Shown piece after piece: positions 22,858 through 63,674 of a stretch of 63,674 nucleotides of DNA (the stretch's first letter is position 1; every line of letters begins with the position of its first letter). The stretch is taken from the NCBI GenBank assembly GCA_036171915.1, contig JAVHRY010000008.1:1-63674 (forward strand), given 5' to 3'. The translations under genes and the position numbers were made by a program. Source of the stretch: Elusimicrobiales bacterium. GTDB lineage: Bacteria > Elusimicrobiota > Elusimicrobia > Elusimicrobiales > UBA9959. The notes under the pieces are model-generated. The model was not told where the DNA came from and did no database searches. It was given only the letters and a program-made list of their open reading frames with translations.

Positions 22858-22880
22858 CTATCGAGGTTGAGCCTCAATAG
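22858..22880. repeat. REP copy (form A, one mismatch)
   Basis: CTATCGAGGTTGAGCCTCAATAG against the consensus CTATTGAGGTTGAGCCTCAATAG. A partial half-site GAGCCTCAAT follows at 22884-22893. Confidence 0.8.
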
Positions 22881-22896
22881 CCAGAGCCTCAATGAC

Positions 22897-22923
22897 AAAA
22901 AACGCCCTGAGAAGGGCGTTTTT
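22897..22923. terminator. Bidirectional terminator between the amidase gene and lysA
   Basis: AAAAAACGCCC-TGAGAA-GGGCGTTTTT. Confidence 0.8.
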
Positions 22924-22944
22924 AGTTTCCGTAGGCCGGGTCTC

Positions 22945-22966
22945 CTATTGAGGCTCAACCTCAATA
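22945..22966. repeat. REP copy (form B, inverted orientation)
   Basis: CTATTGAGGCTCAACCTCAATA is the reverse complement of the form at 22858. Together they form an inverted doublet around the terminator. Confidence 0.85.
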
Positions 22967-22970
22967 CTGG

Positions 22971-51114: not shown

Positions 51115-51177
51115 CGGGATAAACGAACCCTTATAATATAGATATTATAGCAAAGGAAAAAGAGGTTGGGGAATGAA

Positions 51178-51211
51178 GCTCAGCCTCGGGAGATTGAGGC
51201 TGAGCCTCTTA
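51178..51211. repeat. Degenerate REP-like inverted doublet
   Basis: GCTCAGCCTC (51178-87) is the reverse complement of GAGGCTGAGC (51196-205). ATTGAGGCTGAGCCTCTTA resembles the REP core ATTGAGGTTGAGCCTCAATA. Confidence 0.45.
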
Positions 51212-54473: not shown

Positions 54474-55352
54474 CTATTCTCCGTCGGCGATCTTTTTAAG
54501 GTACTGCCCGTAGTTGTTCTTGCTCAGGCCTTCGGCGAAAGCCAGCAGCCGGGCCTTCTTTATCCAGCCCAGGTTGTAGGCGATCTCTTCTATGCAGGCT
54601 ATCTTAAGGCCCTGGCGGCGCTCCACGGTGGCTATAAATTCCCCCGCCTCGAGCAGGCTCTCAAAAGTGCCGGTATCCAGCCAGGCATAGCCGCGGCCCA
54701 GCAGCTCTACTTTCAGCGCGCCGCGCTTCAGGTAGACCCTGTTCACGTCCGTAATTTCAAGCTCGCCGCGGGCGCTGGGTTTTATGGCCCGGGCGGTCTT
54801 CACCACGTCGTTGGGGTAAAAATACAGGCCCGTAACCGCGTATTTGGATTTAGGCCTGGCGGGCTTTTCCTCAATGGACAGCGCTTTGCCCCGGGCGTCA
54901 AAATCCACCACGCCGTAGCGCTCGGGATCGTTAACGTAATAGCCGAACACAGTGGCGGCCTTTGCTTTCGCCGCCGCGGCCACCGCCTTGTGAAAAGCCT
55001 CCGGCAGGCCGTGGCCGTAGAAGATATTATCCCCCAGCACCAAAGCTACGTCCTCACCGCCTATAAAATCGGCCCCTATAAGGAACGCCTGCGCTATCCC
55101 TTCGGGCCTGGGCTGCTCTTTATACGAAATTTCAAGTCCCCAGGCCTGGCCATTGCCGAATATCTCCCGGAAATGGGGAAGGTCCTTAGGGGTTGAGATT
55201 ATCAGTATCTCCCGTATGCCAGCCAGCATTAAAGCCGAAAGCGGGTAATACACCATGGGCTTGTCGTAAACAGGCAGCAGTTGTTTGCAGACCACGCTGG
55301 TCAGCGGATAAAGCCGCGTTCCCGCCCCCCCCGCAAGTATAATTCCTTTCAT
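54474..55352 (-). CDS. rfbA: Glucose-1-phosphate thymidylyltransferase
   Basis: 292 aa with [24 protein letters not shown] and EITDVN. Confidence 0.95.
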
Positions 55353-55361
55353 ATTTCTCCT

Positions 55362-55384
55362 CTATTGAGGTTGAGCCTCAATAG
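55362..55384. repeat. REP copy (form A, perfect) in the rfbC2-rfbA intercistronic gap
   Basis: CTATTGAGGTTGAGCCTCAATAG, a 9-bp stem with a 5-nt loop. Confidence 0.9.
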
Positions 55385-55391
55385 ACCAGTT

Positions 55392-55937
55392 TTATCCTTT
55401 GACTTTTTCTTTTAAGAACGGCAGGGCGCTGTCCTTGGGGGACAGGATGGGGTGCTTAACCGGCCATTTTATACCGAGCGCGGGGTCGTTCCAGCGCAGG
55501 CCGGCCTCATAAGCGGGCGCGTACTCTTTTGAACATTTATAGATAACCTCGGAGCCGTCGGTAAGGGCCACGAAGCCGTGCGCGAAACCGGCCGGCACAT
55601 AGAGCATAAGGCCGTTGGCGTCGGAAAGTTCAAGGCCGAAACTTTTACGGAAAGAGCCCGAACCGGGCCGCATATCGACCGCGGCCTCAAAGATACTGCC
55701 GCGCCCGCAGCGCACCAGCCTGGCCTGGGCGTAGGGCGCCCGCTGGTAGCGCAGGCCGCGCAGCACGCCCCGGCGGGAAATGGAACGGTTTTCCTGCACA
55801 AAGACGTCTTTTATGCCCGCCTTGCGGAACTCGGAGGCTTTATAATTCTCAGAGTAGCTGCCGCGCTCGTCGGCACCCACTTCCGGCTCAATTATCGTCA
55901 GCCCCGGTATTTTAGTTCTAGTGAAGGTGAATTTCAT
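55392..55937 (-). CDS. RmlC-like cupin paralogue lacking the catalytic His and Lys
   Basis: 181 aa that aligns residue-for-residue with RmlC, but reads LRGLRYQ (His63 to Arg) and ARLVRC (Lys73 to Arg). The codon at 55749-55751 was verified as CGC. Confidence 0.8.
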   Translation of the reverse strand: MKFTFTRTKIPGLTIIEPEVGADERGSYSENYKASEFRKAGIKDVFVQENRSISRRGVLRGLRYQRAPYAQARLVRCGRGSIFEAAVDMRPGSGSFRKSFGLELSDANGLMLYVPAGFAHGFVALTDGSEVIYKCSKEYAPAYEAGLRWNDPALGIKWPVKHPILSPKDSALPFLKEKVKG

Positions 55938-62896: not shown

Positions 62897-62938
62897 ATAT
62901 TGAGGCTCAACCTCACTATTGAGGTTGAGCCTCAATAG
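62897..62938. repeat. Head-to-head REP doublet at the 3' end of the RAYT gene
   Basis: ATATTGAGGCTCAACCTCA (form B, truncated) is directly abutted by CTATTGAGGTTGAGCCTCAATAG (form A). The latter encodes the last 8 codons and stop of the RAYT ORF. Confidence 0.9.
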
Positions 62939-63611
62939 AACGTTTTTTCTGGTTTTCCAGGTATTTGGCCATGCTGGCAAGAAAACCACCTCCGTCGGTA
63001 AAAAAGTCATCAAGAATATGGCTGGTTATCACTGATGGAAAGTTAGACAGCCCGGCACAGTCCCGAAAGCTGCTCCATCTGTACGACTTCAGGAATGCCA
63101 TTTCCAGTCCTACCGACTTAAAAGGTGCGCCAAGTTTGAGAGGATTGGCATGAATATAGAACGGAATTCCTTCGAAATGATTTTCCTCCTTGATCATTAT
63201 CGCTTTAAACCGGCCTTGGAACAGCGCACCGGAGCGTTTAAATTTTGTGTTAAAATACATTGTATACGCTGTCCCAAGTTTATGCATGAAGGCTGTAATT
63301 CCACCCTCAACTCTTTGTGTAAGGAGCAGATGGTAGTGGTTTGGCATAAGGACAAAAGCAAGAATATCCACAAGTTTTTTATTCCCGCCAGCACAGGAAC
63401 AAGACAACCCTCCCCGATCTGAATCCACATATGTTGATAAATTGCGGGCGAATAAATATCCAGCGTTAAGTACCGGTTCCATGCTATTCATATCGTGCAA
63501 GTCTTGAATAAAACGATATCTATCGCAATCGGTAGAAAAGACATCCCGTTTATCAGTTCCCCGGTTGTAGATATGGTAAACCTGCCCCTCCGCGAAGTTA
63601 ATTTTCCTCAT
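62916..63611 (-). mobile_element. REP-associated tyrosine transposase (RAYT; IS200/IS605 Y1 transposase-like)
   Basis: 231 aa with IYNRG, HUH motif LMPNHYHLLL, RSGALFQGRFK and the catalytic-Tyr helix YIHANPLK. It is flanked on both sides by the same palindromic repeat and is visibly more AT-rich than its neighbours. Confidence 0.85.
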
Positions 63612-63619
63612 AATTCCCC

Positions 63620-63641
63620 CTATTGAGGTTGAGCCTCAATA
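63620..63641. repeat. REP copy (form A) 8 nt upstream of the RAYT start codon
   Basis: CTATTGAGGTTGAGCCTCAATA. Confidence 0.9.
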
Positions 63642-63674
63642 AATAACATAGCAGACGAACCCGACAACGTACTG

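Follow-up and report, generated by a model that had tools for sequence, protein, structure and literature searches.

The window analysed here is the whole of contig C8 (63,674 nt) of a groundwater Elusimicrobia draft genome (G000; 2.26 Mb in 144 contigs, 58.5% GC, 89% complete). Close to its right end lies a gene for a Y1 transposase with the HUH (histidine-hydrophobe-histidine) motif, probably of the kind known as RAYT (tyrosine transposase associated with repetitive extragenic palindromes [REPs]) or TnpAREP. The gene is bracketed by a perfect palindrome of 23 nt, CTATTGAGG-YTSAR-CCTCAATAG, copies of which are called REPs below. Its neighbours are an aminoacyl-tRNA synthetase (aaRS) gene and a tetratricopeptide repeat (TPR) gene, and no tnpB gene accompanies it. 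The following features were assigned to the locus.

62916..63611, minus strand: RAYT-like Y1/HUH transposase gene, 231 aa (motifs, Pfam Y1_Tnp, fold match)
62897..62919, minus strand: degenerate inverted REP, complete; shares 4 nt with the 62916 copy, with which it forms a REPIN-like doublet
62916..62938, plus strand: REP overlapping the 3' end of the gene; supplies the final seven codons and the TAG stop; the end codons read IEAQPQ
63612..63619, minus strand: G-rich stretch, putatively ribosome-binding, which reads GGGGGAATT-ATG on the coding strand; a similar GGGGG precedes the ATG of orthologues
63620..63642, plus strand: REP in the 5' leader, 8 nt upstream of the ATG, between the putative -10 box and the ribosome-binding site (RBS)
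63647..63674, minus strand: 5' part of an operator-like palindrome and extended -10-like box, AACCCGACA-N6-TGTCGGGTT-CGTCTGCTATGTT; putative promoter, cut by the contig end

The transposase and its gene

The motifs PNHYHLLL and YIHANP, by which a sequence-only reading of the window had recognized a Y1 transposase, were both present in the translation of the open reading frame (ORF). The HUH motif corresponds to H92/H94 (63330-63338) and the catalytic tyrosine to Y152 (63156-63158). Further transposase motifs are an N-terminal YHIYNRG, FQGRF, YIHANP itself and an RWSS tail. In an alignment of 26 homologues H92, H94, Y152, H154 and N156 were invariant, as were PNHYH and YIHANP. The protein passed the Pfam PF01797 (Y1_Tnp) profile with 33.6 bits (E = 4.7e-8, gathering cut-off 23). 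An AlphaFold (AF2) model was built on the 26 homologues (pLDDT 80.8, pTM 0.80) and compared with the Protein Data Bank (PDB) using Foldseek. The best match was 4er8_A, the E. coli TnpAREP with its REP hairpin (E = 3.4e-8), followed by the transposases of ISDra2 and IS608. Residues 56-75 form a disordered loop in the model and the C-terminus forms a helical tail of no assigned type; no Bac_DnaA_C, HTH_23 or HTH_28-like domain was matched there in Pfam at E ≤ 1.

One full-length tblastn match was obtained in the genome, so the gene is present as a single copy, without the multiplicity of an IS200-type element. Its unitig depth in four metagenomes was 14, against 15 for the flanking chromosome. 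Two further Y1 paralogues, on contigs C95 and C106, share 27-30% identity with it. The gene is AT-rich, as noticed before: 43.6% GC versus 57.8% in its flanks, with a GC at third codon positions (GC3) of 0.44 versus 0.77 in the adjacent TPR gene.

A dispersed hairpin and its loop variants

The degenerate 23-mer pattern was matched in the window at 22858, 22945, 55362, 62897 (3 mismatches), 62916 and 63620, with 0 matches expected from 100 shuffles. The copies announced at 55362, 22858 and 22945 were therefore all recovered, as were the one upstream of the ATG and the one that overlaps the gene end. The diverged version noticed near 51193 proved to be a doublet. The 62897 copy had been described as truncated and inverted; it is inverted but full-length, although degenerate. 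Besides those at the gene, the window contains the following copies.

22858..22880, plus strand: REP, left arm of a REPIN-like inverted pair; matches the 23-mer pattern; the pair encloses a terminator between convergent genes
22945..22967, minus strand: REP, right arm of the same pair; matches the 23-mer pattern
51176..51208, no strand assigned: diverged REP doublet, GAAGCTCAGCCTC ... GAGGCTGAGCCTC, intergenic
55362..55384, plus strand: solo REP, flanked by an rfbC-like and an rfbA-like gene and directly adjoining the RBS of rfbA

All copies of the window lie outside ORFs of at least 100 aa, in agreement with the intergenic location first described, save for the overlap with the 3' end of the RAYT-like gene. 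The hairpin feet are CTAT...ATAG. Folded as single-stranded DNA, a single copy pairs over 9 bp (-7.1 kcal/mol) and the 62897/62916 doublet over 18 bp (-20.5 kcal/mol). No relic of an internal hairpin was recognizable within this gene copy. Positions 22881-22944, exactly between the arms of the 22858/22945 pair, hold a strong bidirectional terminator hairpin (AAAAACGCCCTGAGAAGGGCGTTTTT); the pair may have been inserted around the terminator or selected beside it.

Over the draft genome the 13-nt core GAGGYTSARCCTC was counted 18 times at 11 intergenic loci, versus 0-1 in shuffled genomes. Apart from C8, cores were found on six other contigs (C36, C55, C65, C98, C106 and C128). Inverted, REPIN-like doublets occur at 7 of the 11 loci. 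Contig C8, which makes up 2.8% of the genome, carries 7 of the 18 cores, or 4 of 15 when the three at the gene are excluded (p = 0.0007). A local excess of cores near the gene was also seen in the congener G015 and, more weakly, in G024. Conserved target sequences and target duplications were sought beside REPs and beside the cassette formed by the gene and its flanking hairpins, and no flank in common emerged. At G015:C76:10334-10400, four hairpin cores stand in tandem with an 18-nt period and alternating loop variants, an arrangement that resembles BIME clusters. Unitigs break at every REP, and 3 of the 6 gene loci of the genus lie at contig ends. REPs thus fragment short-read assemblies and may hide RAYT genes in metagenome-assembled genomes (MAGs).

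Orthologues with 56-62% identity were found in 4 of 36 congeners, and a fifth congener carries a fragment at a contig end. All four orthologues are bracketed by the hairpin: by the identical 23-mer in G024, by a close variant in G015, and by a version with the loop CTTCG/CGAAG in G035 and G010. The 5'-leader position is also filled in all four. The two loop types were counted across 61 genomes; the gene-bearing genomes gave the following counts.

G000: YTSAR 18, CTTCG 0
G015: YTSAR 21, CTTCG 1
G024: YTSAR 20, CTTCG 7
G010: YTSAR 10, CTTCG 30
G035: YTSAR 12, CTTCG 17

In all five, the loop type adjacent to the gene is the most frequent type of that genome. At least 10 cores were present in 6/6 gene-bearing and 10/31 gene-less genomes of the genus (Fisher p = 0.003). 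Genomes of other genera contained 0-1 cores.

Presence and absence could be compared at the rfbC-rfbA junction. A REP of the genome's own loop type occupies it in five species (G000, G015, G020, G010 and G006), and the junction is empty in G017 (TAA-ttacagcgtagaggagaact-ATG) and a dozen others. In G010 and G006 the final part of the rfbC reading frame consists of the REP (window 55352-55394, L027-L045). The pattern suggests either that the same place was targeted repeatedly or that older copies were converted in situ.

The survey was widened to 74 GTDB loci for which both flanks were available, mostly from Patescibacteria, with 36-48% identity. An 11-mer or longer word is common to the upstream and downstream flanks at 58 of the 74 loci, versus 2 of 61 displaced control windows. 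A 23-nt palindrome was found upstream of the start at 61 loci, with its centre at a median distance of 36 nt. All are built alike, from a foot of 5 variable nt, an inner stem of 4 nt (GAGG 23 times, GAAG 13 times, also GGAG, AAGG and others) and a centre of 5 nt. These palindromes were selected for pairing, so their apparent covariation is no independent statistic. Within the coding sequence of homologues, too, the hairpin is found in frame. At each of two Patescibacteria loci four copies were counted: one ahead of the start, one near aa 60, one near aa 158 and one beyond the stop. In the model of the G000 protein, the first of the two internal positions corresponds to the disordered loop at residues 56-75. 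Of 120 homologues, 90 have REP-encoded peptides (EVEP, EAQP, RGSTS and the like), either at the two fixed loop positions or C-terminally, with C-terminal ones in 28. In some Patescibacteria MAGs there are two gene copies, each with its own hairpin. Homologues were also met in MAGs labelled Nitrospiraceae, Spirochaetia, Planctomycetia, Gastranaerophilales, Omnitrophota and Nanoarchaeota (L114, L120, L121, L125, L128, L151, L152). These represent either wide horizontal spread or mis-binned Patescibacteria contigs.

Insertion site and putative promoter of the cassette

The contig was extended past the window end with a 1959-nt unitig from the same samples. On the extended locus the stop codon of the class II aaRS gene is followed, after 12 nt, by CTATCGAGGCTCAACCTCGATAG and a degenerate copy (a REP doublet). 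Then come AACCCGACAGTACGTTGTCGGGTT-CGTCTGCTATGTT (the operator-like palindrome and extended -10 box), the 63620 REP and GGGGGAATT-ATG. After the gene stand the second REP doublet and the promoter of the neighbouring TPR gene. On the opposite strand, one REP copy past the contig end was scored as terminator-like.

Fourteen congeners with a TPR gene of 54-83% identity were compared at the aaRS-TPR junction. Its contents were as follows.

Empty (0-103 nt): G034, G032, G002, G012, G013, G009, G005
RAYT cassette: G000, G015 (RAYT 57% identical, TPR 80%)
Different Y1 paralogue (TIRYT-type) between GGGGACAGGCTAC repeats: G017, G022, G023
HigBA-like pair (toxin-antitoxin): G016, G018

The TPR gene has a conserved TATATAATTTGATAAAAT box, and every insert is located just upstream of it. 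The orthologues of G024, G035 and G010 are found in other contexts. In GC content all five orthologues fall short of their flanks by 9-18 points. The junction is an insertion hot spot and the cassette is an accessory insertion in it, because equally close species have the junction empty or otherwise filled and the RAYT gene is less similar between G000 and G015 (57%) than the TPR gene next to it (80%). The gene is present in 5-6 of 37 congeners, which differs from the long-term vertical inheritance of Bertels groups 2 and 3. The cassette was probably acquired horizontally. The AT-richness of the gene is thus that of an accessory insertion in a hot spot; a view of it as an anciently domesticated, fixed host gene is contradicted by the patchy distribution and by these identities.

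The contig end (63660-63674) falls in the loop of the operator-like palindrome, and this palindrome is probably the cause of the assembly break. The full motif, AACCCGACA-N6-TGTCGGGTT-N5-CTGCTATRCTATTT, has 9 copies in G000. The copy at 63647-63674 of the window continues on unitig L087:1173-1216 and the other sites lie on C3, C25, C69, C84, C95 and C128. The genes behind it are the RAYT-like gene, a second Y1 gene, RecQ, RadC, RhuM-like, YhcG-like and IS91-like genes and two of unknown function. In the wider genus, CCGACA-N6-TGTCGG-N6-CTGCT was found in 3-25 copies in 34 of 36 genomes and in 0 of 24 genomes of other genera; a reversed-pattern control gave 0. At least 24 sites of the genus lie about 200 nt upstream of matches to Y1 paralogues. 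A sigma-70 consensus scan of the extended locus did not call the putative promoter, because there is no -35 match. Its assignment as a promoter therefore rests on the TGCTATRCT box and on its fixed position before about 9 genes. The palindrome and box would together form the operator-promoter of an accessory-gene regulon. An SOS box was considered for the palindrome and dropped, as the 89%-complete genome yielded neither a LexA DNA-binding domain nor an S24 peptidase domain. A CGTC-tagged REP was rejected as well, since CGTC is not conserved among the copies. Of the other Y1 paralogues of G000, the second (C106:18150-19000) has terminal inverted repeats (TIRs), AATAGGGACAGACACCTATT, on both sides and is a classical TIRtron. 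The third (C95) has the operator-promoter motif and no obvious repeats. The position of the 63620 hairpin between the TGCTATGTT box and the RBS suggests, as had been proposed, that the RAYT-like gene may be autoregulated.

Interpretation and comparison with known systems

The locus is likely to be a REPtron-type unit, that is, a single-copy Y1 (HUH) transposase of the RAYT/TnpAREP kind accompanied by the hairpin cognate to it; confidence in this interpretation is good. It agrees with the REP/RAYT system proposed in the sequence-only reading and is supported by the orthologues that are bracketed alike, by the loop variants that vary together with the gene and by orthologous sites that have or lack a REP. 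Three points on which that proposal could fail had been set beforehand (presence of the palindrome elsewhere, gene multiplicity and profile alignment), and it survived all of them. If it acts as its homologues E. coli TnpAREP and IS608 TnpA do, the protein would bind the hairpin in single-stranded DNA, for instance at a replication fork. Cleavage near the hairpin foot would link Y152 to a 5'-phosphate as phosphotyrosine, with H92/H94 holding the metal. Rejoining of the strand may then copy or move single hairpins and doublets. Hairpin binding, cleavage and rejoining are all predicted from the likeness to these two enzymes.

Several results weigh against a REPtron. With NCBIfam NF047646 (REP_Tyr_transpos) the protein scored 46.8 bits, under the equivalog cut-off of 80; the HUH and Tyr residues do align to Y1 profiles. 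Same-genus paralogues of TIRYT type score higher (62-76 bits) and the Patescibacteria homologues score 41-42 bits. A search of the PDB with the single sequence gave no match and a profile search was insignificant (ISDra2 E = 0.14, 4ER8 E = 0.91), which made the fold search necessary. The 5' foot tags GT[AG]G and CGTC are absent here, and the feet vary among homologues. Eighteen cores are a low copy number compared with the hundreds of classical systems. Ten congeners have at least 10 cores and no detectable orthologue (e.g. G021, with 30 cores); these may reflect gene loss or incomplete MAGs. Finally, no REP-less or newly inserted allele was found at 55362 or at the gene in the contigs of four groundwater metagenome runs, contigs being a form of data that hides rare variants.

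An autonomous IS200-like or TIRtron-like element was considered as the first alternative. The hairpins would be the transposon ends, the cassette would move whole, and solo hairpins and doublets would be footprints or products of abortive end-joining. The patchy distribution in the genus fits this explanation, as do the GC3 contrast with the TPR gene, the different contexts in G024, G035 and G010 and the two copies, each with its hairpin, of some Patescibacteria MAGs. The same holds for the junction common to G000 and G015, where the gene has diverged more than its neighbour and which equally close species have empty or filled with a TIRYT or a toxin-antitoxin pair. IS608 has similar hairpins at both ends. 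Against this alternative, each genome of the genus has one copy, tnpB is absent and the motif is Y---NP instead of the Y---Q of IS200 transposases (PMC6006769, Table 1). Solo hairpins are about 10-fold more numerous than the gene and occur in regular inverted doublets and 18-nt-period arrays, which looks like independent propagation. An autonomous element is considered unlikely as the sole explanation. It overlaps with the REPtron interpretation and does not exclude it: the same chemistry would allow the whole cassette to move, and the hot-spot data agree with such movement too.

Host regulatory or structural elements (terminators, mRNA stabilizers, operators of a transcription factor) next to which the transposase stands incidentally would account for copies at gene 3' ends, around the terminator (22858/22945) and directly before RBSs (55362, 63620), and for the terminator-like call past the contig end, but this is very improbable. 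The gene is bracketed by the hairpin in five Elusimicrobia species, and at 58 of the 74 distant loci, which belong to other phyla, a hairpin is shared by both flanks. The loop variant goes with the gene, terminators would have no reason to lie in frame within it, a T-run is missing from most copies, and an Rfam scan of the extended locus gave no match.

A more tentative proposal, rather doubtful at present, is that the cassette represents an evolutionary stage midway between insertion sequences and domesticated REP/RAYT pairs. The hairpins would then be at once the ends that move the whole promoter-gene unit to new genomes and hot spots and independently copied solo elements. Those in the 5' leader, in two surface loops and at the stop codon would be selected binding or nicking sites by which the enzyme limits its own gene, and such fixed-place hairpins would have been kept across hundreds of lineages (Patescibacteria, Elusimicrobia and other phyla). 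In this genus the gene would also be wired into a LexA-independent regulon, with one operator-promoter common to it and to other Y1 transposases, RecQ, RadC and toxin-antitoxin genes.

The unit resembles the REPtrons of E. coli (YafM/RayT, PDB 4ER8), Pseudomonas and Stenotrophomonas (PMC3333891, PMC3479197, PMC3116915) in having a single-copy Y1 HUH enzyme bracketed by a dispersed intergenic palindrome, REPIN-like inverted doublets and a gene-specific hairpin variant; the best structural match also belongs to this group. It differs from them by its CTAT...ATAG feet instead of a 5' GT[AG]G tag and by 18 cores instead of hundreds. Additional parts of the enzyme are an N-terminal motif, two insertion loops and a helical tail at the C-terminus, and its score stays under the NCBIfam equivalog cut-off. 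The cassette is accessory, AT-rich and not stably vertical.

In its motifs the protein comes close to TnpAY1 subclass 2.1, an assignment made at the motif level by inspection of the alignment against Table 1 of Quentin et al. (2018, PMC6006769). This subclass corresponds to Bertels group 1, or TIRYT; no REP-like sequences were reported for it, and neither Elusimicrobia nor Patescibacteria were sampled (PMC6006769). Its motif set in Table 1 of that study is NH[YF]H, FQ or WQ, Y[IV]HLNP and an 'SS' tail in about 238 aa. Here NH[YF]H, FQ, Y[IV]H[LA]NP and an 'SS' tail are found in about 230-240 aa, and the patchy taxonomic distribution is similar. TIRYTs carry GGGGWSAS inverted repeats (Di Nocera et al., 2013, PMC3733652), and the GGGGACAGGCTAC repeats are such TIRs. 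A true TIRYT cassette with these repeats and the same promoter motif occupies the same junction in G017, G022 and G023. The flanks of the RAYT-like gene are, in contrast, self-complementary 23-mers of a dispersed family, and true GGGGACAG repeats flank a different paralogue. The absence of a detected Bac_DnaA_C/HTH tail and the identity of about 30% to TIRYT paralogues are further differences.

With subclass 2.4 (Bertels group 4; PMC6006769) the homologues share in-frame hairpins that leave the ORF intact, and its 'double-foot' palindromes resemble CTAT...ATAG. Its insertions lie between HuH and Y and its feet are GTAG, whereas in the homologues here they precede HUH (at about aa 60) and follow Y (at about aa 158), and the Elusimicrobia copy keeps only the C-terminal one. 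The IS200/IS605 family (IS608, ISDra2; subclass 1.1) has the same Y1 fold and subterminal hairpins on both sides, and its single-strand mechanism is the model for the chemistry proposed above. The unit differs from it by its single copy instead of several near-identical ones per genome, by Y---NP instead of Y---Q, by the lack of the tnpB that often accompanies such elements and by hairpins that stand alone elsewhere.

In the literature searched, no paper was found with any of the six core sequences in a relevant context or with REPs in Elusimicrobia or Patescibacteria. The REP/RAYT partnership is already known; the hairpin and the enzyme branch are undescribed. Work on REP/RAYT systems has so far been confined almost entirely to Proteobacteria and GTAG-tagged REPs, and the subclass that the enzyme resembles was reported REP-free. 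The present case adds a separate branch of the enzyme, equipped with a 23-nt hairpin of its own and conserved all the way from GC-rich Elusimicrobia to AT-rich Patescibacteria. The genus is unusually informative thanks to its filled and empty orthologous sites, its loop variants that follow the gene and a hot spot in which REP-type and TIR-type Y1 cassettes are swapped behind the same promoter. It offers a compact natural system for the study of hairpin choice by a Y1 enzyme, of movement of the whole unit versus spread of the hairpin only, and of host control.

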